Position numbers and translations under genes: made by a program. A DNA stretch of 64,000 nt from a virus, in the IMG/VR virus record IMGVR_UViG_3300028588_000820; one strand, 5' to 3'. Position 1 is the stretch's first letter; each line of letters opens with the position of its first letter. The notes below the pieces were generated by a model. That model worked only from the letters and a program-made list of their open reading frames with translations, searched no databases and had not been told where the DNA came from. This document shows, in pieces, positions 6,571 through 62,376 of this stretch.

Positions 6571-6933
6571 ATGCGTCCACCAAAACAGAAAAAGCCAGAC
6601 TTCAACATCGACACCATCCTGAAAAACCCGGTCGATGCTCGTATGCTGAAATGTCTGATCGACACCGCTCTGATCAGCAAGACCAAAATCGATCTGGAAA
6701 ACGCAGCAATCGCTGACCAACGTAATGAAGCTAAGGACAAGCTAGGCATGCCACCGGCAGTGTTCAACAAGCTGGTGAGCGTGAAGCACAACCAAAGCCT
6801 CGCACAAGAACGGGCCAAGATGGAAACCACCGATGCAACTCTGGTTTCACTATACGGCGAAAACGGTGGCATCCTCGGCCCAGTGGCTGACTTCGACGGT
6901 GCAGACGACGACCTGTCCGGCGACTACGAGTAA
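6571..6933 (+). CDS. dsbA: T4 DsbA-like dsDNA-binding protein
   Basis: EAKDKLGMPPAVFNKLVSVKH resembles T4 DsbA RAKDELGVDGKMFNRLLALYH; start ATG6571. Confidence 0.7.
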   Translation: MRPPKQKKPDFNIDTILKNPVDARMLKCLIDTALISKTKIDLENAAIADQRNEAKDKLGMPPAVFNKLVSVKHNQSLAQERAKMETTDATLVSLYGENGGILGPVADFDGADDDLSGDYE

Positions 6934-7310
6934 TGTCGAGCAATGTCAACGAGGCGTTGGCTAAGCAAGACATTGATACTCTACTAGCCTTCGCTGCATT
7001 TCGCGACACTCTCAAGTTCGATCGCTTCGACAACCTAGAGCCAGCCCAAATGGCTGCACTGACCAAATGGGTTGAAGACTTGATGCAAAACATCACACCA
7101 GCACAAATGGTCAACATCGTGTTGTATTACGAAACACGGTTAGCGAAGCTTGATGTTGAATCCGCTCGGCATAATATCCTCAAACAGGCAGTACGCGAAG
7201 TATTAGCCGAGCAATCATCAAAGTGCAATCATCAGTGGACGAAGATGTCAGGAAGCATGGCTGAATCTCACTATCGATGCACGGTCTGCGGTGAAGACGA
7301 TTGGCGATAA
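6933..7310 (+). CDS. hypothetical protein with C-terminal Zn finger
   Basis: CNH...CTVC. Confidence 0.65.
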   Translation: MSSNVNEALAKQDIDTLLAFAAFRDTLKFDRFDNLEPAQMAALTKWVEDLMQNITPAQMVNIVLYYETRLAKLDVESARHNILKQAVREVLAEQSSKCNHQWTKMSGSMAESHYRCTVCGEDDWR

Positions 7311-15713: not shown

Positions 15714-15926
15714 ATGAACGACCTCGAACATCAATACTTGTTCGACAAAGTCGTTTCGGCTGCCGCTGAAATGGTTTATGTCGAAGCCAATATCACGTTG
15801 GATGAAGCCAAGAAGCGCGCATCCGATGCTCTGACCGCACTCTGGTCCTATGACCTTTCGCGCAACCTCAACAAGCGAGGTGTAATCGCCGAGCTCACCA
15901 AATCCATTGCAGACCAAATCAAATAA
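15714..15926 (+). CDS. hypothetical protein
   Basis: Leader ACAAAAATAATATG. Confidence 0.7.
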   Translation: MNDLEHQYLFDKVVSAAAEMVYVEANITLDEAKKRASDALTALWSYDLSRNLNKRGVIAELTKSIADQIK

Positions 15927-15927
15927 T

Positions 15928-17127
15928 ATGAACGCAAAAACTTTGCTTCGAGACTTTGTCTCTTCTATCACGACACCGACAATTCAACGTCGGCAAGTGA
16001 TGGAATACTTCAGCACCAAAGGTGACCTCGAGCGTATGCTCAACATCATCAAGGCGACCTGCGCCGATGCGATCGTATCGACCGAGCCAACCGTGTACAA
16101 CACCGACAAATTCATGAAATGTGTCGAAGCTATCAGCGATGATGCGGTTGCTGCTCCAGCACAACTTGAAGCAAAGCCAGCGTTCAATGTCGTCGATGGG
16201 CGTGCTGATCCGAACCAGCCAGATGTTATCAAAACGGCATCATATCTGGAACTTGAAGAACTGATCGATCCGCAGTACCCGATCAACATCTATGTCACTG
16301 GCGAGACCGGCCTCGGCAAGACGACTTCGATCTTCGCGATCGGCAAGAAGTTCAATAAGCCAGTGGTTCGCGTGAACATGTCCGGCTCCACCGACCTGGA
16401 TGACTTGATCGGCGGTATCCGTATCGTTGATGGCAACACCGTCTTCGATCCTGGTCCAGTCGCTCTTGCAATGGAGATGGGCGCGATCCTTTTGCTTGAC
16501 GAATGCGATGCTGGTAAGCCGCAAGTCATGATCGACCTCCACCCAGTCCTCGAGCGTAAAGGCGTCCTCGCCAAGAAAGCTCGCAAGATGATCTACCCAG
16601 CACCCGGGTTCTGTGTCATCGCAACCGGTAACTCGAAAGGCTCGGGTGATGTAACTGGTAAATACATTGGTGTAAATACCATGAATCACGCGTTCATGCA
16701 ACGCTTCGCCGCCGTTGTAGACTTCATAGCGCCCAATCGTGTTGAGATTGAGCATATCATCAGAGGTAACCAACCGAAGCTCCCTTACTCCGTCCTGGCG
16801 AACCTGTGCAACTGGTATCAGCACGTTCGCGAGTCGTACGAAGCTGGCACCGTATCTGAGTACATCAATGCTCGTAAGATGCAAGACATCGCAGCCATTT
16901 GCATGATCTATCGTGCGAAGAACGGTACCGACACTTGCGTCTTGAAAGCTCTGCGCAAAGCGCTTGCTCAATACGAACAATCGGTGGTCGATGCTCTGGT
17001 TCAACTGTACGACACGATCGTCGAAGACATCGACGAAAAGCAAGCACTGCAAGCGGCATCGGCACCGAGCCAACTTGCATCCGAACCAGCTCGGGTTGAC
17101 GAGACTGGACAGCCAATCCCATTCTAA
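15928..17127 (+). CDS. CobS/MoxR-like AAA+ ATPase
   Basis: GETGLGKT, DDLIGG, LLLDECD, IATGNSKG, AFMQRF; start ATG15928. Confidence 0.9.
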   Translation: MNAKTLLRDFVSSITTPTIQRRQVMEYFSTKGDLERMLNIIKATCADAIVSTEPTVYNTDKFMKCVEAISDDAVAAPAQLEAKPAFNVVDGRADPNQPDVIKTASYLELEELIDPQYPINIYVTGETGLGKTTSIFAIGKKFNKPVVRVNMSGSTDLDDLIGGIRIVDGNTVFDPGPVALAMEMGAILLLDECDAGKPQVMIDLHPVLERKGVLAKKARKMIYPAPGFCVIATGNSKGSGDVTGKYIGVNTMNHAFMQRFAAVVDFIAPNRVEIEHIIRGNQPKLPYSVLANLCNWYQHVRESYEAGTVSEYINARKMQDIAAICMIYRAKNGTDTCVLKALRKALAQYEQSVVDALVQLYDTIVEDIDEKQALQAASAPSQLASEPARVDETGQPIPF

Positions 17128-17129
17128 AC

Positions 17130-17369
17130 ATGATGCATAATCCTAAAATCGAAACCAAGCTGATGCTCGGTACCACTGAAATAGCAAAAGCTTTCTTGCT
17201 TGTTGTTCCAGATCGTGCCGAACGCATCGACATCGACGGCGCCGAGTACCAAGTTCTGGAACGTCGCTTTCATCTGAAGACTTCATACAACGGCGGCACG
17301 CCTTGCGGCTTCTCGCAATCTTGCACCCTTACCGTCAAGGCATTTAAACAGCCCACCCTGAATTGCTGA
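17130..17369 (+). CDS. hypothetical protein
   Basis: Between AAA+ and vWA genes. Confidence 0.65.
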   Translation: MMHNPKIETKLMLGTTEIAKAFLLVVPDRAERIDIDGAEYQVLERRFHLKTSYNGGTPCGFSQSCTLTVKAFKQPTLNC

Positions 17370-17370
17370 C

Positions 17371-19371
17371 ATGAACAAGAATCTTAAACCTGCAATCTCG
17401 AAGTCCGCTATGATGCTGCGGAACATGTATGACCTGTATGCGAAGATGCTTGCCGTCGAAAACATCCAGGTTGTCTTCGACGAAGCGATCGATGCTCCGG
17501 CGCAGTTCGACATTCTGAACCGAATTCTGTACATCGCGCCGGTTCATGCTACGCAGGTTGAATTGATTCCTGGCCTCGTGATTCATGAAGTCGGTCATGC
17601 TCTGTTCTCGACACTCACGCCAGAAGAACTGAAGAAGCTCAAGCGGATTTCGAAGTTGCTGAACATCATCGATGACGGCTATCAAGAACGAATGATGTGC
17701 AAGAAGTACGCGAACTCCAAGAAGCATTTGTTCACGATCTTCGACCACTTCTTCTTGCAGTTGAAGGAAGATGTTTATAACACGCCTAACAAGCTCGTAA
17801 ACATTGTCAACATCCTGAACTTCAACTGCAAGGGCTTTAAACATGGTCACTACAAAAAGTATCCATCGTATGTCCTTGAAGAGGACGTAAAGCTGCTTCA
17901 AGAGGCAGAGCAAATCGCTTTGCCAAAACTGATTGAACGCGATGAGTTCGCCAAGAAACTTGCACAAGCTTTGAAGAAGTACGGTGATATGGCCGAAGAT
18001 GGTACAGACTTGGATTCCGGGAAAGGAAAAGATTCTAAGTCTGGCCCGACTGACAAAGGCGAGCCAGATGACGCCGATGGTGAATCCGAAGATGGTGAAT
18101 CCGAAGATGGTGAATCCGAAGATGGCGAAAGTGGCGAGAGCGGCGATGATGCGGATGACGAGAGCGACCAGACTGGTGCTGGTGGCAATGGAGCTGCTGA
18201 AGACGATGTCGAAGAAATGCTCGAGAAGAACTCGGACAAGCTGAACGACCATCACAAGAAGTTTGAGCAAAACATGGGCGGCGCCGGGTCCTATGAATTG
18301 CCAACTGGCAAAGAGATTCTGGACTTCAGTCGCGTCATAGACATCTACGAGAAAGATAGTCAGGTTGACAGAGCCATAGCCAATGCCGGTGTGGACATTG
18401 CTGACAAGTATCGTCGTTGCCAGAAAGAGGCGAAACGTGTCGCGACCCAAATCTTCACGAAGTTCAATATGCGCCTTCAAGCGCAGAACTACGCGAACAC
18501 TCAGTTCAAGAAATCTGGTTCGCTTGATCCAGAACGCTGCGCTCTGTACCAAGTCTACGATGACGTCTTCGTCAAAGAAGCAATCGAGCCAAATCAAGTG
18601 AACAACGCTTACTCTGTGATCCTTGACTGGAGTGGTTCGATGAACAGTTCGGTCTATGCTCTGGTCCTCCGGATCATGGAGCTGACCTACTTCGCGAAGA
18701 TGGCCAACGTCGAAATCGAAGTTTGGATGTACACGACCAATGACGGAGCAGTCAGCTACAAGGGATGTCGTCGCAACATCGCTTTGACCAATTCGAAGAT
18801 GATCAAGGTCTTGAATACGAAGCAGCACAATCAGCTCGAGACCGAGACTCGACTGAAGCATCTCTGGTACATCACGCGCACCATCACGAACATGTCGCCA
18901 AAGCTTCAAGGTATTGACGGCTATACGTCGAGATATACCCTTAGCGGAACAAACATCCTTGAGGGCTTGATTCTTGGTCATTATGTTCTGTCTAAGATGG
19001 ACGCTGAGAAGAAGGCTTGCTTCTTGCTTACAGATGGCGATGACACGAGCGTGTTCAACGTTCTGTATCGTGCGGACGGCGGCCCATCCAAGAACTATGC
19101 CCCAGATGCGAAGATTTATTTGCATGGAATCAACGTGTCGCAGGCGTATAAGCGGAACCATGTGCGAGCATCGTCCTCAGCAGCGATAGCAGAGCTTTAC
19201 GCTGCGGCTGGTCAGAAAACTATTGGCATCGCATGGAATTGCCAGGGCGCCGCTATGGATGGCTATGCACACAATGTGATTCGTGTGTCTACCGGCGCGC
19301 AAGTGATTGAAGATGGCTACATCCATGCGCCGAATGTCTTCGTGGACGAAGTCGTCAAAAATTTGCTGTGA
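17371..19371 (+). CDS. CobT-like protein: HExxH domain, acidic linker, vWA domain
   Basis: HEVGHAL; DE-rich linker; LDWSGSM MIDAS; LLTDGD. Confidence 0.88.
   Translation: MNKNLKPAISKSAMMLRNMYDLYAKMLAVENIQVVFDEAIDAPAQFDILNRILYIAPVHATQVELIPGLVIHEVGHALFSTLTPEELKKLKRISKLLNIIDDGYQERMMCKKYANSKKHLFTIFDHFFLQLKEDVYNTPNKLVNIVNILNFNCKGFKHGHYKKYPSYVLEEDVKLLQEAEQIALPKLIERDEFAKKLAQALKKYGDMAEDGTDLDSGKGKDSKSGPTDKGEPDDADGESEDGESEDGESEDGESGESGDDADDESDQTGAGGNGAAEDDVEEMLEKNSDKLNDHHKKFEQNMGGAGSYELPTGKEILDFSRVIDIYEKDSQVDRAIANAGVDIADKYRRCQKEAKRVATQIFTKFNMRLQAQNYANTQFKKSGSLDPERCALYQVYDDVFVKEAIEPNQVNNAYSVILDWSGSMNSSVYALVLRIMELTYFAKMANVEIEVWMYTTNDGAVSYKGCRRNIALTNSKMIKVLNTKQHNQLETETRLKHLWYITRTITNMSPKLQGIDGYTSRYTLSGTNILEGLILGHYVLSKMDAEKKACFLLTDGDDTSVFNVLYRADGGPSKNYAPDAKIYLHGINVSQAYKRNHVRASSSAAIAELYAAAGQKTIGIAWNCQGAAMDGYAHNVIRVSTGAQVIEDGYIHAPNVFVDEVVKNLL
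18076..18120 (+). repeat. 15-bp tandem repeat x3 (DGESE)
   Basis: GATGGTGAATCCGAA x3 plus a degenerate fourth copy. Confidence 0.95.
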
Positions 19372-22016: not shown

Positions 22017-22559
22017 ATGTCTAATCAAAAGCCACGCTTTGGCGTCTTTTTGGCGCTAACATTCGAAGACGAAATTTACAAGGACTACCCTCAAGTCTGT
22101 CCGACGATTCAAAATCACAAGTTCCAGAATCTCCTGATCACGCTACGTGAAGACGGCTACTTCGGTTTCCTTGGTGGTTCGGCCGATGAAGGCGAGACGG
22201 AACTCCAGGCATTGGTACGTGAGTGCAAGGAAGAAGGCAACATCGACCTGGCATGGTTGCTGTCTGTTTTGCCTCCAGACGCCCTGTCGCGTTCCTGCGA
22301 ACACACGCTCAACGATGGGTATAAGGTCATCTTGTACCATTTGCGAATCACCAAGCATCTGGCAAAGAACATCATTCGTAACTCGGTCAACGCGCCTCAC
22401 TTCTTTGTCGAGACCGCAGGCATTGTCAGCGTTGCAATCCACAACAAATCCTCGTTCCATCAAAACAAATTCTTGTCGTGCATGGGAGATGAATTCAAGG
22501 AAGTCGCGAAGCTGATCGACTCCACCATCCTCGACACATGGGGTAATCTAATCGAATGA
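22017..22559 (+). CDS. Nudix hydrolase, NUDT16-like
   Basis: Nudix box GGSADEGETELQALVRECKEEG preceded by LREDGYFGFLGG. Confidence 0.85.
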   Translation: MSNQKPRFGVFLALTFEDEIYKDYPQVCPTIQNHKFQNLLITLREDGYFGFLGGSADEGETELQALVRECKEEGNIDLAWLLSVLPPDALSRSCEHTLNDGYKVILYHLRITKHLAKNIIRNSVNAPHFFVETAGIVSVAIHNKSSFHQNKFLSCMGDEFKEVAKLIDSTILDTWGNLIE

Positions 22560-23548
22560 ACATGAATACTGACATGGAAGCTCTTATCAAGCAAAGTGTC
22601 AGGTTCGAAGGTCGTTCAAAAGGTTGGGAGCATTGCAAATGCAAGGTTTGCAATGACTATAAGGTTCGTGCTTCATTCGCATTCGAAGACGACCGCATCA
22701 AGTACAACTGCTTCAACTGCGGTCTATCGCAGTCCTACAAACGAGGCAGCACCTTCATGGCGCAGGAGTTCAGAGACATCCTCCATGCGTACACCATCAC
22801 CGACAACGACATCGACCTGATCCTCGGTAAGAACTTCTTCAATAAGGACGTCATCACCCTGGCGAAGAAGAAGGCCGAAAGTAAGATCGCCGAAGTAGAA
22901 CTACCTCCCAATTGCTATCCGATCCCTGACGTCGATCCTGACGATATGTGGACAATCGTAGCAAAAGAATACCTCGAAGAACGAGGACTATCCCTACAAG
23001 ATCATACGTGGTATTTGTCGACACATTTAGAATATCGCGATCGGCTCGTCATTCCCTACTACAAGGACGGAAAGGTGATATATTGGCAGGCGAGGTCATT
23101 TGATGACAACGCCAAAAAGCGATACATCAACCCTAACGTCCCAATCGAACCTATTCTTTTCGGGTATGAGGAATTAGAAAAGTCCGCTCAACAACCGCTG
23201 TTCATTATGGAAGGTGTCTTTGACGCTATCTCCATTGGTGGTGTGAGTATGCTTGGCAGTAAACTGTACAAGCAGAGGATCGATGCCTTTACTCGTAGTC
23301 GTCGACGCAAAATCTTTGTGATCGACAAGAAGGATAAGCAAAACAACGGATACAAGTTAGGCGTTGACGCTTTGAAGAACGGATGGGAGATTACATTCGT
23401 ATCTGGCGCTGACACCAAGGACGTCAATCATAGTGTTAGTAAATACGGCAAGCTATGGACGATCCAGAATCTAATGGAAAACGCCTGTGGTGGATTTGAA
23501 GCTCAAGTAGCTTTAGAAACGATTTGCAAGAATCACGCCGTCAAGTAA
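22556..23548 (+). CDS. DNA primase (gp61-like)
   Basis: CKVC...CFNC Zn finger, YLxxRG, RLVIP, WQAR, EGVFDA TOPRIM, KDVN. Confidence 0.92.
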   Translation: MNMNTDMEALIKQSVRFEGRSKGWEHCKCKVCNDYKVRASFAFEDDRIKYNCFNCGLSQSYKRGSTFMAQEFRDILHAYTITDNDIDLILGKNFFNKDVITLAKKKAESKIAEVELPPNCYPIPDVDPDDMWTIVAKEYLEERGLSLQDHTWYLSTHLEYRDRLVIPYYKDGKVIYWQARSFDDNAKKRYINPNVPIEPILFGYEELEKSAQQPLFIMEGVFDAISIGGVSMLGSKLYKQRIDAFTRSRRRKIFVIDKKDKQNNGYKLGVDALKNGWEITFVSGADTKDVNHSVSKYGKLWTIQNLMENACGGFEAQVALETICKNHAVK

Positions 23549-23571: not shown

Positions 23572-24873
23572 ATGAATATTGAGAAGCAGCGTTTGCTGAT
23601 TTCTTATTTGTCTTCGGACAGCGATTTGTTTGCCCGCTGCAATGCAATCGTCGATCCGAACTATTTTGATCCAGAAGTTCGTCATTCAGTTCACTTCCTA
23701 AAGGAGTACTACGAAACCTATCGTGCGCTGCCATCTGCTGAGCAGATTAGCGCCGAGACTGGCAATCACTTCGCGGCACGTCCGCTGACAAAGACAGAAA
23801 TCGAGTATGGTCTACGTGAAGTAGAAACGTATTGCCGAAACAAGGCAATCGAAAAAGCAATCTTGGCATCACCTAAACTCCTTGATAAGGGTGACTTCGA
23901 CAAGATTCTGGTCAACATGAAAGATGCAATTTCAGTGGCCATCAACCGTGAATTGGGTTTGGATTACTTCGCCAATCCTGAGGAACGTCTAGCCAGAATG
24001 CTTCAAATGAATGCATTGATTCCAACTGGCTACAAGGAACTGGACGAATTCCTGAATGGTGGTATCTCTCGTAAAGAGTTGCTGCTGTTTATGGCAGGTT
24101 CAGGCGTTGGTAAGTCGATCTTTATGTCAAACATCGCCATCAACTTCCTGATGCAGAAGCTTAACGTGTGCTACATCACGCTAGAGCTAGCTGAAGAGGT
24201 CGTTGCAAAGCGTTTTGACACGATGATCACCGGTATCGGTCAAAAAGAAATCTTTGACAAGATGTCGAAAGTCCACGCAGAACTTGAGCAACTGCGCCCA
24301 CAAATGGGTAAGCTGTTTATCAAGCGTATGCCAGAGAGTACCACGAATGCTAACCACATTCGTGCATACCTCAAAGAGTTCGAGATGATCCATGGCTTCC
24401 TACCAGATGTCATCGTCGTCGACTACATGGACCTAATGACCTCGAATCAGAAAATCTCGGCCGAGAACCTATTCGTGAAAGACAAGTACGTTGCTGAAGA
24501 GCTACGTTCGATCGGCAACGAATACAATCTGCTGATGGTAAGTGCATCACAGATGAACCGTGCAGCAATTGGCGCAGATGACATCGACCAAAGTAATATC
24601 GCTGGTGGTCTATCGAAGATCAACACCTGCGACAACTTGATCGCTATTATCCAAACCGATGCAATGAAAGCAGCTGGCGAATACATGCTGAAGCTAGTCA
24701 AAACTCGTAACTCGGGTGGTGTTGGCAAAGTGATGATGTTACGCTGGAGCCCTGTTTCATTGCGTGTCACCGACCTTGACCATAGAGATAAGGACAAGAT
24801 CGAATTCGTACGAAGCGATGATGCTAAGAAGGGTAAGAAGAAAGACTTACTCGACCTAATGAAAGACGTTTAA
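23572..24873 (+). CDS. replicative helicase (gp41/DnaB)
   Basis: AGSGVGKS, YITLEL, VVDYMDL, ASQMNR, KTRN. Confidence 0.95.
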   Translation: MNIEKQRLLISYLSSDSDLFARCNAIVDPNYFDPEVRHSVHFLKEYYETYRALPSAEQISAETGNHFAARPLTKTEIEYGLREVETYCRNKAIEKAILASPKLLDKGDFDKILVNMKDAISVAINRELGLDYFANPEERLARMLQMNALIPTGYKELDEFLNGGISRKELLLFMAGSGVGKSIFMSNIAINFLMQKLNVCYITLELAEEVVAKRFDTMITGIGQKEIFDKMSKVHAELEQLRPQMGKLFIKRMPESTTNANHIRAYLKEFEMIHGFLPDVIVVDYMDLMTSNQKISAENLFVKDKYVAEELRSIGNEYNLLMVSASQMNRAAIGADDIDQSNIAGGLSKINTCDNLIAIIQTDAMKAAGEYMLKLVKTRNSGGVGKVMMLRWSPVSLRVTDLDHRDKDKIEFVRSDDAKKGKKKDLLDLMKDV

Positions 24874-24883
24874 GGATACCATA

Positions 24884-26749
24884 ATGGAAAATAATATTTT
24901 GAAGCTGGATGGCATGGAAAAGATCGAGTCGGACAAGGCAGTTTACCTGCCGTCGAAGAGCCGCCTCACTACCGAAAGCGAACTCGCCAAAGAGAAACGC
25001 AAATCGCCATTCGACTTCTTCAAACTGCCGAAGGATGCAACCATTCGGTTCCTGCCAGACAGCACCGGTCCGCTGACCACGTCAAGGGACTATCTTAGCC
25101 GGTATGTCGACGTCTACAGTATGTATAACATCGCTGAAGACTGCGTCATCACTCCGCTGGACATGAGTGGCTCAATGGCCAGCGCAGTCACCGAAACCGG
25201 CAGGGAAGCTGTTCGCAAAATCATGGATGATTACCTGAAACATGCGAAAGGTATGAAGTCTCTGTACTACACCCGTTCGTCCAAGCCGGTTGATCCGATT
25301 ATCACCATCGACTCGCTGAGCATGATCGTCGACTCGATGAAGACCTACCGCGAGGAAGAAGCGACCGATACGCTGCGCATGAAAATCCTGAAGGATCGTG
25401 ACCATCGCCAAGCTGAAGGCTGCTTCTACGCCCCGTACATCCCAGAAGGTCTTGGCAAGAACGAGTACAAAGTAGTGGAGCCGATCGGGTCGACCGACAC
25501 TCTGTCGAAGGAAGAATTCACGGCCGAGCCACGAGACCTGGCTCAAAACAATCTGTGCCAAGAAATCCATGATCACATGATCAACCTCGAGGTCAGCTTC
25601 GACTTTCCGCTGAAAGGTAAGAAAGTCAATCCTTTCATCTGGGACATGGACATCAACTGCTTGTACGATCGAGTCAGCCCCGTTTTCGACATTGAAAAGC
25701 CGCTGAATCCATGTAATGAAATCCCACTGGGCAAGCCGATGAACGGAGTAATGTTCGACAGTGATGTGGACCTGACGCAGAACGAAAATTGGAAGTCGTG
25801 GTTCGAGACGAACACCAACTGCAACTTCTTCGACGCCGAAACCACCTTCGTCCGGCTACCAACAACCATCACCACTGGCAACGACTACCTGGACATCTTG
25901 TTTGGCAATGGACTGAAGCCTGGATCGGTGACCTTAATCGCAGGTCAGGCAGGCCTCGGCAAATCGGCACTGGCTAAGAACGCAGCTGCTGGTCTGTCGG
26001 TGAATGGCACCGAGTTCCTGTACGTGACCGTTGAAGAATCTGCAGACAAAGTTATCGAACGCATTCAAGCTCTGAACAACCACAACGTCGATACGAACTA
26101 CAAAGTCGTTCGTGCTGGCGATTGGTGCCTCAATGGCCTGATCAACCTGATTCGTGAAGAGACTGAAGACCTGGCAAATCCACGCGTTGTGATCGTCGAC
26201 GGACTGGACTTCTTCAAAGATGCTGGTGCGCATATCCTGGGACGCCAACTGCGTACCCTCGCTATGGACCTCGATGTCGCAATCGTCGGCACCAATCAGC
26301 TGGCTCGTGCTAGTAAATACGACATCAAGCCGCTACTGCCAAGTGGTGACTATGGTCTGCTGGCTGAAGTCGATGCTGCGGTTGCAATCACTCGCAATGG
26401 TTGCGAAACTGAACTGTCGATCATGAAGAATCGTCACAGCCACACCAATGCCAAGTTCTTGTTCGATGCAGGTAGCAACCTGATCTGGGAGCCACTGAAG
26501 GTCGCTGCGGTGAATACCGAAGTGTTCGAATGCACCTTCCCGAAGCAAAGCGAAGGACGCGGTTCACGCGTTACCGAGTTGCCAGGAGGCAACGCAGAAG
26601 TGATGGAAATTGCTGACATCGAATTCTTCAAAGGTAAGCTTCTGACGAATCTGAAAATGCCAGTCTCGAAGAAAGTAACCTTCGCTGACCTGAAAGCAGC
26701 ATTCGCTCCAAAGGTCGAACCAGACTACCCAGTCGCCGACTGGCTCTAA
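24884..26749 (+). CDS. RecA/DnaB-fold ATPase flanked by a mosaic of core-phage-protein motifs
   Basis: Core aa ~328-520 (AGQAGLGKS, YVTVEES, VIVDGL, TNQLAR, KNRH); flanks described in findings. Confidence 0.85.
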   Translation: MENNILKLDGMEKIESDKAVYLPSKSRLTTESELAKEKRKSPFDFFKLPKDATIRFLPDSTGPLTTSRDYLSRYVDVYSMYNIAEDCVITPLDMSGSMASAVTETGREAVRKIMDDYLKHAKGMKSLYYTRSSKPVDPIITIDSLSMIVDSMKTYREEEATDTLRMKILKDRDHRQAEGCFYAPYIPEGLGKNEYKVVEPIGSTDTLSKEEFTAEPRDLAQNNLCQEIHDHMINLEVSFDFPLKGKKVNPFIWDMDINCLYDRVSPVFDIEKPLNPCNEIPLGKPMNGVMFDSDVDLTQNENWKSWFETNTNCNFFDAETTFVRLPTTITTGNDYLDILFGNGLKPGSVTLIAGQAGLGKSALAKNAAAGLSVNGTEFLYVTVEESADKVIERIQALNNHNVDTNYKVVRAGDWCLNGLINLIREETEDLANPRVVIVDGLDFFKDAGAHILGRQLRTLAMDLDVAIVGTNQLARASKYDIKPLLPSGDYGLLAEVDAAVAITRNGCETELSIMKNRHSHTNAKFLFDAGSNLIWEPLKVAAVNTEVFECTFPKQSEGRGSRVTELPGGNAEVMEIADIEFFKGKLLTNLKMPVSKKVTFADLKAAFAPKVEPDYPVADWL

Positions 26750-26765
26750 TAATAACAAGGAAAAC

Positions 26766-27011
26766 ATGACTACTGAAACCACCCAAAACGTCGTTACCAT
26801 CAACGGCAAAGAGTACGAAATCGCCAATCTGTCTGACACTGCAAAAAGTCTGCTGCAGATTTTTAACCAGTGGCAGAACGAGCGTGATGAATCAGCCACC
26901 GCCCTAACCAAGGCGAAGGTTGAGCTGGCAAAGAACGAGGCAGCACTACGTGACTTGTCCCGCGAAATCGTCGAGCTAATCGAGAACGAAGAAGCCGCAC
27001 CAGCTGCCTAA
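26766..27011 (+). CDS. small coiled-coil protein
   Basis: VTINGKEY followed by a helical segment; AAGG SD. Confidence 0.75.
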   Translation: MTTETTQNVVTINGKEYEIANLSDTAKSLLQIFNQWQNERDESATALTKAKVELAKNEAALRDLSREIVELIENEEAAPAA

Positions 27012-29755: not shown

Positions 29756-30412
29756 ATGGACAAGTTTAACTATCCGAACATTGATACTGTCAACTACAAT
29801 GGACAGCGCTGGTACTCATGTGAGGAGGGTGTTGCGTACCCAAGTATCACGACGATTCTTGGGTTCACAATGCCAGAAGAAAAGAAGAAGAGCTTAGAGA
29901 ACTGGCGTACAATGTTGGGCCCAATCGTCGCTGAAAAGAAGATGAAGCAGGCTACGACACGTGGTACGCACGTTCACGAAATGCTCGAACAGTTCCTCAA
30001 AGGTGAGCCGGTCAAAACGGCTGGCATTCCACCAGAGGACATCGATGTCTTCAACTCACTCAAACTAAGCCTTCGTGGCATCACAGAAATCTACGGCCAA
30101 GAGATGGCCTTGTACTCTGACGTTTTGCAAGTTGCAGGCCGTTGTGACTTGGCTGGACGTTGGAAGGGTGAAGAAGCGATCATCGACTTCAAAACATCCG
30201 GTCGCTTCAAAGAAGAAAAAGAGATTCAAGACTATTGGGTCCAATGTGCATTTTATGCACTAGCTCACAATGAACAGTACGGAACGAACATCGAGAAGGG
30301 CGTGATCCTAATGGGTGTTGCTGGTGGCCTACCACAAGTCTTCGTAAAGGACTTGATGCCATATGTTTCGATCCTAGTTGAGCGAATCGAGAAATTCTAC
30401 AATTCACTGTAA
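29756..30412 (+). CDS. PD-(D/E)xK exonuclease (phage Cas4/YqaJ-like)
   Basis: YPSITTIL, RGTxVH, E, AGRCD, IIDFKTS, QxxxYA. Confidence 0.88.
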   Translation: MDKFNYPNIDTVNYNGQRWYSCEEGVAYPSITTILGFTMPEEKKKSLENWRTMLGPIVAEKKMKQATTRGTHVHEMLEQFLKGEPVKTAGIPPEDIDVFNSLKLSLRGITEIYGQEMALYSDVLQVAGRCDLAGRWKGEEAIIDFKTSGRFKEEKEIQDYWVQCAFYALAHNEQYGTNIEKGVILMGVAGGLPQVFVKDLMPYVSILVERIEKFYNSL

Positions 30413-58740: not shown

Positions 58741-61700
58741 TTACGCTAGATTTTGTCTTAGTGTCGTAGCAGTATAAGTGCTTACGATTTCGATGTCATT
58801 GATCGTCGCGCAGCTCTGTAGGATTTCATCCTCGCCAGATTCGATGACGAACATCGAACCAAACGAGTTGTTCACGAACAGAGGAACCAACACAACCGAA
58901 GCAACATCAAGCGGCAAACGCTGATGGATCAACGAGAACAACTCAGTCGCGTAGAACGTATCACCAAAGTCCCAGTTGTCGACGGTGAAGAACATGTTGA
59001 TGACCTTCACGATTTCCGCCTTGATCTGGTCATCGGTCAACGTCGAAGCTTGCGACTTGATCACACGGAAGCGAGCACGAAGTTGTGGTTCAGCCAAGTC
59101 ACCAAACAACACTTTGACTTTACCGGAGTGCATCACAACAGTGTCAGAAATCATCTTGGTCGATAGCAAGTTACTGTACGAGTTGCGTAGCTCCAGAGGA
59201 GTCGGCGGGACTGGTACGTAGCTATTAGTGCCATTGATGTACGACGAAACGTTGTCAAAGTAACCACGAGTTAGCACGAACATGTCGATGATGTTTGATG
59301 TCGACGGGTCGATCAAATTAGTGTTCGGACTGAAGTGTTGCCACAAGAAGTCCAGGCCACTACGACCGATTTTACGAACATAACCGTCAGCATTACCAAC
59401 AGCGAACTTGTTCTTAATCTCTGGCGTTTCAGCCACAGGAATTTCTGCGCTGTTTGGATCATTCTCAATGTTCGATACGTCAAAGTACACGTAGTCGATG
59501 TTGTCAAAGTTAGCCACCGAAATCTTACCAGCAGTTGCAGTTGGGAACGTCACAGTAATGTTGTTCGCATCCACTTTAGTCATCGTGCCCAGCTCGAGAC
59601 CCATGAAGTCAACCACTGGTTTGTTGGTGCTTAGGTTGTGAGCAATTGTCCATACAGTCGACGGAGTAGTTTGCTGATGGACATGCTTAAAGCCAGTGTT
59701 CACAAATTCAGTGAAGCCCATGCTATCGTCAGGTACACCATCACCGGATTGATAAGTTCCGCTTGCATCGGTCGGTAGAACTTCTAGTGCGTTCACATTC
59801 ACAATACCATTGTCAAAGCGGACAGCGTCAACCACGTCAAAGTTCTTGTTCTTGCCTAGTGCCATTGCTTTGCTCTTGCCCAAGTTCGACTTCAACAGAG
59901 CTACGCGATCGCGCACACGGTTCTTGGTATTTGGATCGATGATGTATGAGTCAGAGTTGTACCAGAACTTGGTGGTGTCTGATTCAATAACGATCTTCAA
60001 ATCGCGGAAGCGAATCTCCCATTCAAGTACGTTGCCAGTCACTGGATCATCATTACGATGGATACGGAAAATCCACGAGCGATCATCGCGCGGTTGGTTC
60101 AAAGTACCTGAGTAAGCCGGATCGAAGTCTGCATCGTCGTTCAGCGATTCGCCATCGATGGTGTACCAGCGACCAGCAAGGTTCACGCCTTCGTATTGGA
60201 CACCGCCAAAGATAAAGCCGCGTTGAGTTGCAACTCCACCTTTCACATCGAAGACGAACGCATCGCCTTGCGCGAAGTCGATAATGCCAGGAATGATCGA
60301 GAACGAGATGCTGTCGTTTTCATAAGGCAAGACCGAATTGACAGTTGCCAAGCCAGTGAGGCCGGATTTCGAACCAGTCACTGAGAAGGTTACCGAGCCA
60401 GTACCATCGTTGGTGAACTCAATGGTCCATGTTTCGTCTGGCGCATCTTCCTTAACATTCATCGAGACCACTAGACCTTTACGTTCAGCATCATCGGCAC
60501 CAACACGATTGAAGCCGACTTCGTTGGTGAAGCCGATACCAAAGGTAGGTTGCTCAGAAGCGACCTGGAGGCCGTTAGGAGGCAACGAAGTGGTTCCGTC
60601 AATGGTTCTAAAGATCGTGTCGTTGTAAATCTTCTGATCGGCGTCGTTTGACACTACAGCGCAAGTCACGCCATTGATCAGCACGTTCTCTTTTGGTTCG
60701 CCATAGAAGTGACGATCAAGCTTACCTTGAATTGCAGTTTTCTCAAACACACCAAGCTTTGAATCTTCGATGAACTTGTAGCGTGGGTTGGTAACAACGT
60801 CACGTAGCTGGCTATGCTGCGAAGTCATGTACGTGAGGATGTTCAAGATGTTTGAGGTCTTGAGCATTGGCTCGATCGCAGAGTCAATCAACGCACGTGA
60901 GGACAGAGTCGAGATGTTCGAGTTCTGTTTCATGTCGTAGTAGATGCGAAGGTCATCACCGAAAATCTTGACGTTCTGGTAGTTGCCAGACGCGTCGTTC
61001 CAGTCGATATACTTTGGCTGTCCGGCGAAGGTACGGTTAACGGCTTTGAGCTTTAGGATCGATGGATCGCGTAGCAGCAAAGTGTTATAGTCTTGACCAT
61101 TGACCATACGACCTTGTGAGTAGTAGGTTGATGGCGCGGTGCGACGAATGTGCTCGATGTCTTCGCTCGCCGCTGAGTTCTGTAGGGTGCTGACGAGTGA
61201 GAAAGTCAAGCTCGCAGATTCAGCCACGTCGAAGGTCGAGTTATAGGTGAAGCCCATTGGCATGTTCACCACGCGATTCTTTTGAATCACGATGTTCGAG
61301 TTCAGGGACTGACGAACCCACACGTTGAAGTTGCCAACCGGAATAGATGCGAAGTTGCCGTCGCCAAATAGTAGGCGAATGCGGTCGTTCTCCAACGTTT
61401 CGACTTCGAACTTGTTGCGGTTCTTGTCCACGTTGAAGTAGATGTTCTGTGCATTGATTGCAGACACTTGCTCCCAACGTTCAAGTGTATTGCCTGAGGT
61501 ATCGACCTTATTGATCCATACGTCGACGTTGTTGATGTTCTGGAGGTTGATGTCAACCACTTGGTTCGGGATCGGAGTCTCGAATGAAAGCGGTAGATTC
61601 GACAATGTACCTTGCTTCGTGTACATCAAGAAGCCGGTCATGTCTGAGCCGTCGCCTAGACCGTCGTTTGAGTAAACGACTTGCATAGTCGAGTTAGCAT

Positions 61701-62376
61701 CAGGTGCCTTCTCAAACACGCCATCTGCATCTAGGTCAGATGGAACGATTTCCATTGGGACAGTCTCAGTGTTGGTGCTGACTTGATAGCCATGCACACC
61801 ACGAGTGAAGCTGCCGCGAGAGTTGTTGAATGAGTATAGTTGGAAAGCGATGTCGCCAACTTGGAATGACTTGATTGGCTGCCCGAATGGCTTGGTCATG
61901 AGACGATTCATGATCAAGAAGAATTGCTCTTTCCAAAGGGCGTTGTTGCTGTCGTTCCAGACGATGGTACGATTGCTGATGTCATTACCTTGTGAGTCAA
62001 TGATCGACTCAGAAGTCGAGATTGAAGTTAGCTTCACAAGGCCGCGAGCTGGCAGGTTACGTGACGAATTGTACGAGATAAGCTTCGCCAACTTCAGAAT
62101 GTTCTGCTTACGTTCAGCAGTCGAAATGAAGTTTTCATGGCTCGCCATATCGATACGGTACGCCAATTGTTCTGCTACAACCGCGAAAGCGTCAATGACT
62201 GCGATCAGTTCTGAGGTTTCAATGTAGTCATTGAACTGTTCAGCATAGTACAACTTCATGTACTGGATTAGAGATTCCTTGACGGACTCGTAATCAAAGG
62301 ACACGAAGTTGATCTTGTCGAAAGCTTGGTAAACTCTGTCCCAAGTTTCGGCTGCATAAAGTGATGTTACGGCCAT
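58741..62376 (-). CDS. baseplate wedge protein (gp6-like)
   Basis: DYESVKxxL...FNDY...ENFISTA; LLFGDG; EDIEHIRRTAP...QGRMVNGQDY. Confidence 0.85.
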   Translation of the reverse strand: MAVTSLYAAETWDRVYQAFDKINFVSFDYESVKESLIQYMKLYYAEQFNDYIETSELIAVIDAFAVVAEQLAYRIDMASHENFISTAERKQNILKLAKLISYNSSRNLPARGLVKLTSISTSESIIDSQGNDISNRTIVWNDSNNALWKEQFFLIMNRLMTKPFGQPIKSFQVGDIAFQLYSFNNSRGSFTRGVHGYQVSTNTETVPMEIVPSDLDADGVFEKAPDANSTMQVVYSNDGLGDGSDMTGFLMYTKQGTLSNLPLSFETPIPNQVVDINLQNINNVDVWINKVDTSGNTLERWEQVSAINAQNIYFNVDKNRNKFEVETLENDRIRLLFGDGNFASIPVGNFNVWVRQSLNSNIVIQKNRVVNMPMGFTYNSTFDVAESASLTFSLVSTLQNSAASEDIEHIRRTAPSTYYSQGRMVNGQDYNTLLLRDPSILKLKAVNRTFAGQPKYIDWNDASGNYQNVKIFGDDLRIYYDMKQNSNISTLSSRALIDSAIEPMLKTSNILNILTYMTSQHSQLRDVVTNPRYKFIEDSKLGVFEKTAIQGKLDRHFYGEPKENVLINGVTCAVVSNDADQKIYNDTIFRTIDGTTSLPPNGLQVASEQPTFGIGFTNEVGFNRVGADDAERKGLVVSMNVKEDAPDETWTIEFTNDGTGSVTFSVTGSKSGLTGLATVNSVLPYENDSISFSIIPGIIDFAQGDAFVFDVKGGVATQRGFIFGGVQYEGVNLAGRWYTIDGESLNDDADFDPAYSGTLNQPRDDRSWIFRIHRNDDPVTGNVLEWEIRFRDLKIVIESDTTKFWYNSDSYIIDPNTKNRVRDRVALLKSNLGKSKAMALGKNKNFDVVDAVRFDNGIVNVNALEVLPTDASGTYQSGDGVPDDSMGFTEFVNTGFKHVHQQTTPSTVWTIAHNLSTNKPVVDFMGLELGTMTKVDANNITVTFPTATAGKISVANFDNIDYVYFDVSNIENDPNSAEIPVAETPEIKNKFAVGNADGYVRKIGRSGLDFLWQHFSPNTNLIDPSTSNIIDMFVLTRGYFDNVSSYINGTNSYVPVPPTPLELRNSYSNLLSTKMISDTVVMHSGKVKVLFGDLAEPQLRARFRVIKSQASTLTDDQIKAEIVKVINMFFTVDNWDFGDTFYATELFSLIHQRLPLDVASVVLVPLFVNNSFGSMFVIESGEDEILQSCATINDIEIVSTYTATTLRQNLA

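Follow-up and report, generated by a model that had tools for sequence, protein, structure and literature searches.

How should a phage gene be understood if its product appears to be pieced together from short conserved segments of many unrelated phage proteins? The question is raised by a 64,000-nucleotide (nt) stretch of viral DNA (IMG/VR record IMGVR_UViG_3300028588_000820; the whole of this stretch is called the window below), in which an open reading frame (ORF) at positions 24884-26749 on the plus strand encodes a protein of 621 amino acids (aa), here termed the mosaic protein. An earlier note on this DNA had read the region ahead of the ATPase core of this protein as a string of signature peptides, and the peptides that it quoted are all present, in a single frame and where it had placed them.

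The mosaic protein almost certainly consists of an N-terminal cap, a core of RecA/DnaB fold and, flanking this core on one side or on both depending on the family member, strings of 8-46-aa copies of the best-conserved parts of core proteins of the lineage itself. Its gene is a real accessory gene of one sub-lineage of phages, kept by purifying selection on its amino acids. The family is tiny and is represented here by 11 members, of which seven came from 1.8 billion representative proteins screened with a profile and four from IMG/VR contigs by means of a helicase probe. Literature searches found no published description of such a protein, in agreement with the earlier note, whose author knew of no comparable system.

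Composition of the mosaic protein

Judged from sequence comparison, support is strong for the portal and major capsid protein (gp23) modules, and moderate for the modules that resemble the single-stranded DNA-binding protein (SSB) gp32, the metal ion-dependent adhesion site (MIDAS) strand of von Willebrand factor A (vWA) domains, topoisomerase II, motif A of the family B DNA polymerase (PolB), and the finger loops and Tyr-Tyr motif of ribonucleotide reductase (RNR). Their positions and individual scores are given in Table 1. The modules resemble the proteins of their own lineage, including those of G001, a complete relative of 359,550 bp, far more than those of T4.

The portal module, which is C-terminal in the window copy, is matched by 603 phage records and aligns pairwise to a marine portal with an E-value of 1e-8. 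The Pfam portal family PF07230 is matched by 3 of the 11 family members (best E 1e-12). Compared with the lineage's own proteins, the L014 and L016 copies have portal modules with E-values of 1e-8 and 2e-9. The Pfam profile has 433 positions, of which 260-302 are matched, and the 38-46-aa stretch corresponds to the end of the clip, the channel loop and stem helix alpha7. The conservation of the channel loop between T4 and SPP1 has been termed exceptional, and mutating this loop in SPP1 impairs stimulation of the terminase ATPase (PMC4493910). Since only these positions are matched, and not the full-length portal fold with its wing, stem, clip and crown, the mosaic protein was rejected as a portal. 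In gp20, the counterpart of the tunnel-loop-like piece at aa 287-301 comes about 12 aa after the segment to which the C-terminal portal module corresponds; this piece found no match in the G001 portal. The peptide GVMFDS, which had been listed as a faint portal likeness, remains weak. The peptide ITIDSLSMI, previously assigned to the Walker B strand of RecA/UvsX, proved ambiguous, with the portal stem as another candidate: in each of two phages, the module at aa 140-157 matches the same part of the portal with 21 bits, and the comparison with the portal of G001 gave p 0.06.

The gp23 reading of the FYAPYIP piece was borne out, both in the window copy and in orthologue P0005, whose module scores 44.8-49 bits (E 1e-6) against G001 gp23 and also gives a weak Pfam Gp23 match. 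The strictly conserved block that follows it (aa 196-220) has no parent protein that could be found by tblastn of phage records or by a search of G001. The gp32 piece likewise held up, and in orthologue P0007 it reaches an E-value of 0.005 against G001 gp32.

The vWA-like module (aa 82-104) matches the window's own CobT-like vWA protein, from which the DxSGSM module probably derives. This 666-aa vWA/peptidase protein is paired with a CobS-like MoxR AAA ATPase (window 15907-19371, plus strand). A 125-aa ORF just upstream of PolB (window 6933-7310, plus strand) also bears, in its C-terminal part, an exact 6-aa match to the MIDAS-like module; it is the top match in the own-genome search with the mosaic protein, and may be a chance match. 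The topoisomerase II module, which the earlier list of peptides did not include and which was added in the present analysis, is the second-best match in the phage's own genome and falls within its gp39 homologue.

Module matches compared with chance

Short matches of this kind arise easily, and a scan with shuffled controls, as the earlier note had suggested, gave a divided outcome. The number and strength of the short matches equal those of shuffled queries, whether these are compared with the T4 ORFs, with the phage's own 103-kb record, or with its PolB, vWA and helicase proteins singly, but their placement in hallmark genes lies far above that of the controls. Among the four best T4 matches, three fall in gp20, gp32 and gp24, where 0.35 would be expected, a result reached by none of 300 shuffles, and nine hallmark genes receive 8 of the 39 T4 matches against 2.95 expected (p 0.003). 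The enrichment was repeated against a marine T4-like phage and against the related 360-kb phage G001. Moreover, the matches fall on positions that are conserved between T4 and the marine phage (identity 0.54 vs 0.37, p 6e-5), and hallmark matches per 285 aa number 5-6 in the mosaic protein, compared with 1.1-1.3 in 65 natural control proteins of the same genome.

Profiles were also built from the family's own instances of six modules and used to rank the 1,450 ORFs of three phages; their patterns were picked after the resemblance had been seen, so that the ranks check the earlier claims and do not amount to blind discovery. The predicted parent came first for the RNR Tyr-Tyr motif, the class I RNR loop and the topoisomerase II PLKGK motif, and second for PolB motif A and the class II-type RNR loop, i.e., at rank 1-2 for five of the six profiles. 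The first rank for motif A went to another mosaic-like ORF, located at 114447-114860 of G001, ahead of PolB.

The readings of PolB motif A and of the RNR peptides thus gain moderate support, with the motif-A-like copy at aa 74-81 weak by itself, whereas the polymerase 'TGR' peptide failed the rank test. The matches that had been drawn to the window's own genes fared unevenly: those to PolB, vWA and the helicase are at chance level when taken singly, the helicase-like MKILKDR among them, although the vWA strand (P 4e-4) and motif A (rank 2) gain support from profile comparison. The Exo I-like peptide at aa 265-271, which includes VFDIE, has no parent above chance.

Orthologues, turnover and selection

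The source phage belongs to the T4 superfamily. It is a giant phage, because a contig of 350 kb carries one family member (P0009) and because the 103-kb record to which the window belongs is rated 30% complete. G001 encodes T4-type gp20, gp23, gp32, gp43, gp17, gp41, UvsX, NrdA and topoisomerase II; its helicase is 57% identical to that of the window, and it does not carry the mosaic gene. The gene is missing wherever the helicase is just 52-58% identical, which confines it to one sub-lineage. Outside this family, a tblastn search of 50,697 phage records with aa 1-330 returned nothing meaningful, blastn with the mosaic gene gave no matches, and searches for longer (intein-bearing) or shorter (stand-alone) relatives found none.

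The gene lies between the replicative helicase gene, whose stop codon it follows by 10 nt, and a conserved 81-aa gene, inside the replication module, and orthologues hold the same position in 10 other contigs in which this module is conserved. A chimeric assembly is unlikely, since collinear orthologues are found in independent assemblies. At this fixed position the content of the gene changes rapidly. Mosaic genes are 22-74% identical and encode 322-621 aa; for the helicases encoded next to them, identity is 73-96% and length 433-436 aa. The N-terminal region varies in length between about 75 and 330 aa, its content is shuffled, and the eleven orthologues carry different subsets of modules in different orders, as had been predicted for an array. 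Thus, the portal module is C-terminal in the window copy and N-terminal in the L014 and L016 copies, of which the latter bears a 23-aa insert; NLCQEI and the motif-A copy occupy other positions in P0006, P0008 and P0009; P0007 joins the gp32 piece directly to a motif-A-like piece; and the L017 copy consists of cap and core without modules. This fast turnover suggests a conflict role over a housekeeping role.

Within this changing frame the amino acids are under constraint, and the earlier expectation of purifying selection on the motif codons was met by the data. Against a 74%-identical orthologue, the ratio of non-synonymous to synonymous change (dN/dS) is 0.22 in the mosaic region and 0.24 in the core, with a proportion of synonymous differences (pS) of 0.5. 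The corresponding non-synonymous proportion (pN) is 0 in the first 15 codons, in the region of the cap, and also 0 throughout the gp23 module and the adjoining block (aa 196-220). In this block, which is identical in members with merely 40% overall identity, pS is 0.43. Where a residue is common to the mosaic protein and to the PolB or vWA protein of the window, the codons differ about half the time. The view of the modules as old or foreign captures retained as protein therefore stands in one part, as there is no extra DNA identity to the parents, and not in the other, as the best matches are to the phage's own lineage and not to foreign proteins.

Smaller ORFs of related composition were seen as well. 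In G001, a small ORF at 92543-92851 (L099:2543-2851, minus strand) holds gp32 N-terminal-like, CPLC zinc-knuckle-like and topoisomerase PLKGK pieces and looks like a mini mosaic in a genome without the main gene. The 138-aa ORF at 114447-114860 (L100:6447-6860, minus strand) combines its PolB motif-A-like piece with a piece like the C-terminal end of PolB and with the 9-aa module of window 25580-25603. Another small ORF, at 64621-65148 (L097:10621-11148, minus strand), contains a 31-aa copy, 64% identical, of the conserved N-terminal stretch of the phage's own gp23, which is the counterpart of the Gol segment of T4. Outside the window, G000:C1:99924-100478 has an 18-aa gp23-like helix piece (E 0.006), and a similar piece occurs in P0006.

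The core and the fold of the flanks

The core beats the Pfam gathering cut-offs of both PF03796 (37.3 vs 27 bits) and PF06745 (39.1 vs 26.6 bits). In the window copy, Walker A, the catalytic Glu, Walker B and the KNR finger are all intact according to the motif alignment. Across the family, the Walker A lysine is replaced in 4 of the 11 members and the catalytic Glu in 2; because of these losses, ATP hydrolysis is not the conserved function of the family, and a scaffold role for the core is plausible. Going by its fold, the core may form a ring (hexamer). The solved structures nearest to it are those of RecA, KaiC and RadA, which are also its best relatives in NCBIfam and the PDB, and every NCBIfam equivalog cut-off lies far above its scores. 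Accordingly low scores led to the rejection of two specific assignments. For a replicative DnaB/gp41 helicase, TIGR00665 gave 21 vs 385 bits and phage_DnaB 31.5 vs 499, and the N-terminal helical primase-binding domain was not found. For RadA/Sms, TIGR00416 gave 43.6 vs 403 bits through the P-loop part only, and just the KNR-type motif of the RadA features is present. The PADLOC defence models gave just a weak P-loop match to the mosaic protein (E 0.0012).

Ahead of the core, neither Pfam, hhalign nor AlphaFold2 recognised a single domain, as the earlier note had held; Pfam searches at E 10 with nine overlapping 60-aa pieces and with the whole N-terminal region returned one unrelated weak Coat_F match, and a feature search of the ESM Atlas gave no usable match. 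AlphaFold2, run on an 8-row alignment, assigned a predicted local distance difference test score (pLDDT) of about 30 to aa 1-325 and 540-621, which may merely reflect the shallow alignment. The composition of the N-terminal region is that of a folded protein (35% hydrophobic residues, TOP-IDP 0.10), which rules out a typical disordered linker region and contradicts the earlier description of Pro/charged linkers and disordered flanks.

Possible functions and rival explanations

We tentatively put forward protein-level mimicry displayed on an oligomeric core as a possible function. The core would act mainly as an oligomerising scaffold, a role suggested because 4 of the 11 members are without the Walker A lysine, and the copied segments would be protein-level mimics that compete for the contacts made by the same segments in the real proteins. 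Such mimics may work against the matching proteins of rival phages, or against host factors by which conserved phage proteins are recognised. Mimicry is favoured because fragments of native proteins can inhibit dominant-negatively, by titrating interaction and folding contacts (PMC9245647, PMC10769210), and because a hypervariable, lineage-restricted gene under selection fits a conflict role. A more specific version, multivalent display, in which an oligomeric RecA-fold scaffold would carry changing excerpts of the phage's own core proteome and thereby blunt host pattern recognition or poison rivals, is speculative and rather improbable as it stands.

Several points weigh against mimicry. Given its folded-type composition, the N-terminal region may be an unrecognised domain, and the window copy retains every ATPase motif, so that an enzymatic role is possible. 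Several modules are, singly, no better than chance. Because modules are near identical to the phage's own proteins, a dominant-negative effect would hit the phage itself as well. Binding of an epitope may also trigger a sensor instead of blocking it; the action of the T4 Gol peptide on Lit is an example. Short linear 'epitopes' are disfavoured as decoys for Avs proteins in particular, because the known Avs sensors read extended folded surfaces and not short linear peptides (bioRxiv 10.64898/2026.01.04.697583).

The mosaic protein could instead be a working ATPase of replication or recombination, such as a RadA/DnaB paralogue, a helicase partner or a loader, with an N-terminal folded domain derived from captured gene fragments, so that the likeness to other proteins reflects origin and not function. 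This account, the main rival, is about as probable as mimicry and thus possible, if doubtful. Its location directly after the helicase gene with conserved synteny, the intact motifs of the window copy, the kinship of the core with RadA, KaiC and RecA, the folded-like N-terminal composition and the retention of the cap in all members agree with it; it is harder to reconcile with the loss of the Walker A lysine and the catalytic Glu in several members, with scores far under every equivalog cut-off, and with the lack of the gene in close relatives that have the same replication module. An N-terminal region of about 75-330 aa with shuffled content is also hard to fit to one domain of fixed function. 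Alternatively, the protein may be a self-directed regulator, a pseudo-subunit hub that uses the copied contact segments to retain the portal, capsid, SSB, polymerase and nucleotide-synthesis proteins of the phage itself, or to set their timing. The best module matches are indeed the lineage's own proteins, the parents include members of the replisome and of deoxynucleoside triphosphate (dNTP) synthesis, and fragments are able to titrate native contacts; however, a housekeeping regulator should be neither lineage-restricted nor hypervariable, and the L017 orthologue has no modules at all, which makes this role unlikely.

Chance resemblance, or a divergent whole vWA domain spanning residues 84-330, is very unlikely. 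Counts and top scores of short matches that do not rise above shuffles in single proteomes would suit chance, which is nevertheless refuted for the portal and gp23 modules, as these are significant singly, and is opposed by the parent ranks and by the enrichment in hallmark genes and at their conserved positions. For the vWA domain speaks a low-confidence ESM Atlas model (pLDDT 0.43), whose nearest folds are vWA domains with template modelling (TM) scores of 0.27-0.37; the likeness detected by hhalign is, however, confined to the beta1 strand and DxSGSM (23 columns), without a Pfam vWA match at E 10, and a whole vWA domain was rejected. Least probable of all, and largely refuted, is a function at the DNA level, which the earlier note had considered as a decoy or repair donor and which would make the gene an array of target sites for homing endonucleases or inteins. 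Such elements classically insert at the parent motifs, and the lineage carries Seg- and Mob-like endonuclease genes. Yet the amino acids have been retained despite heavy divergence at synonymous sites, codons for shared residues differ from the parents as described above, and the modules are without the flanking homology to parent genes, so that they cannot act as repair donors; the intein splicing domain PF14890 had no match in four records of the lineage, and no longer intein-bearing relatives were found.

Relation to known systems and significance

With RecA-superfamily ATPases (the C-terminal domain of DnaB, PF03796; KaiC, PF06745; RadA/Sms) the mosaic core shares the fold, Walker A and B, the catalytic Glu and the KNR-type finger. 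It differs from DnaB and RadA in having no DnaB N-terminal domain, RadA zinc finger or Lon-like domain, and in the loss of catalytic residues in several orthologues. With the T4-type portal gp20 (PF07230) it shares only the 38-46-aa stretch, and the position of this piece differs between orthologues.

The Gol region of T4 gp23 activates the Lit protease together with EF-Tu. In this case as well, the segment concerned is a short and conserved piece of the capsid protein, which a host factor recognises by itself; Gol, however, lies within the real capsid protein and triggers defence, whereas the gp23 module of the mosaic protein is another segment, near the C-terminus, and is carried by a non-capsid protein. 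Engineered dominant-negative fragments (Savinov et al. 2022, PMC9245647; FragFold, PMC10769210) resemble the mosaic protein in being short excerpts of native proteins. They are laboratory constructs used one at a time, while the excerpts described here are natural, concatenated, taken from at least seven parents and fused to a probably oligomeric core, and by analogy might inhibit in a similar way.

If the modules do mimic their parents, giant phages would possess a general and evolvable means of interference against readers of conserved phage proteins, with competing phages and the growing number of bacterial proteins that sense the core phage proteome as candidate targets. The mosaic protein would then represent a natural, evolvable 'pseudo-epitope array' that spans virion and replication proteins, and a natural counterpart of engineered inhibitory fragments, which could supply peptide leads against contacts of portal, capsid, SSB, polymerase and RNR. 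Whatever its function, short pieces of essential genes have been recruited into new genes and retained by selection. Furthermore, annotation pipelines can mislabel mosaic proteins, as the window copy passes the Pfam cut-off for portals.

Locus and further observations

The features of the mosaic gene and its immediate neighbours are collected in Table 1.

Table 1. Elements of the mosaic protein and adjoining genes, in window coordinates.
Feature	Residues (aa)	Position	Strand	Remark
N-terminal cap	6-30	24899..24973	+	Core aside, the only flank element present in all 11 members
gp32 (SSB)-like module ending IRFLPD	45-59	25016..25060	+	Second-best T4-proteome match; 26.9 bits vs G001 gp32
First PolB motif-A-like copy	74-81	25103..25126	+	Weak; in module profile, not significant singly
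vWA beta1-MIDAS-like module with DxSGSM	82-104	25127..25195	+	hhalign P 4e-4, 23 columns
RNR large-subunit Tyr-Tyr motif-like module	121-135	25244..25288	+	Profile: T4 NrdA residues 722-731 first of 1,450 ORFs
Ambiguous module	140-157	25301..25354	+	Portal wing/stem-like or RecA/UvsX Walker-B-like
Major capsid protein (gp23)-like module with FYAPYIP	172-195	25397..25468	+	hhalign P 6e-5, 20 columns
Strictly conserved block	196-220	25469..25543	+	Identical in members merely 40% identical overall
Class I RNR finger-loop-like module with NLCQEI		25544..25567	+	Exact 6-mer in marine T4-like NrdA; profile rank 1
Module common to small G001 ORF		25580..25603	+	30.3 bits, E 0.03, vs G001 114447-114860
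Type II topoisomerase (gp39) PLKGK-motif-like module	241-249	25604..25630	+	Profile rank 1, independent E-value 0.002
Second PolB motif-A-like copy	253-262	25640..25669	+	Best match in own PolB is motif A; profile rank 2
Exo I-like peptide	265-271	25676..25696	+	Unsupported; parent not above chance
Class II-type RNR finger-loop-like module with NPCNEI		25703..25729	+	Profile rank 2; NPCGE in G001 NrdA
Portal tunnel-loop-like piece	287-301	25742..25786	+	Weak; best T4 match, E 0.19
RecA/UvsX catalytic-Glu-strand-like piece	312-321	25817..25846	+	Weak; orthologue P0003 19.7 bits to marine UvsX
RecA/DnaB/KaiC-fold core	325-539	25856..26500	+	Pfam and PHROG matches, pLDDT ~80, motif alignment
Portal module	552-597	26537..26674	+	PF07230 E 1.3e-5, above cut-off
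C-terminal tail	599-621	26678..26746	+	Conserved; limited to four long members
Primase gene		22556-23548		Upstream of helicase gene
Replicative DnaB/gp41-type helicase gene		23572..24873	+	Context; orthologues 73-96% identical across genomes bearing the mosaic gene
81-aa gene		26766..27011	+	Directly after the helicase gene in relatives without the mosaic gene

The conserved replication module also includes genes for SmpB-like, Nudt16-like Nudix and RimK-type ATP-grasp proteins (window 22017-22559; loci L004, L008, L010), to which locus L008 adds an RMF-like gene; together, these genes suggest tampering with translation. Four genes downstream of the mosaic gene lies a Cas4/PD-(D/E)XK-like nuclease gene (window 29756-30412, plus strand), which scores below the curated cut-off and gives a faint PDDEXK_1 match. 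Further away, a virion-type ORF of 1,211 aa (window 58741-62376, minus strand) contains a 47-aa stretch that matches the G001 tail sheath protein gp18 with an E-value of 6e-8.

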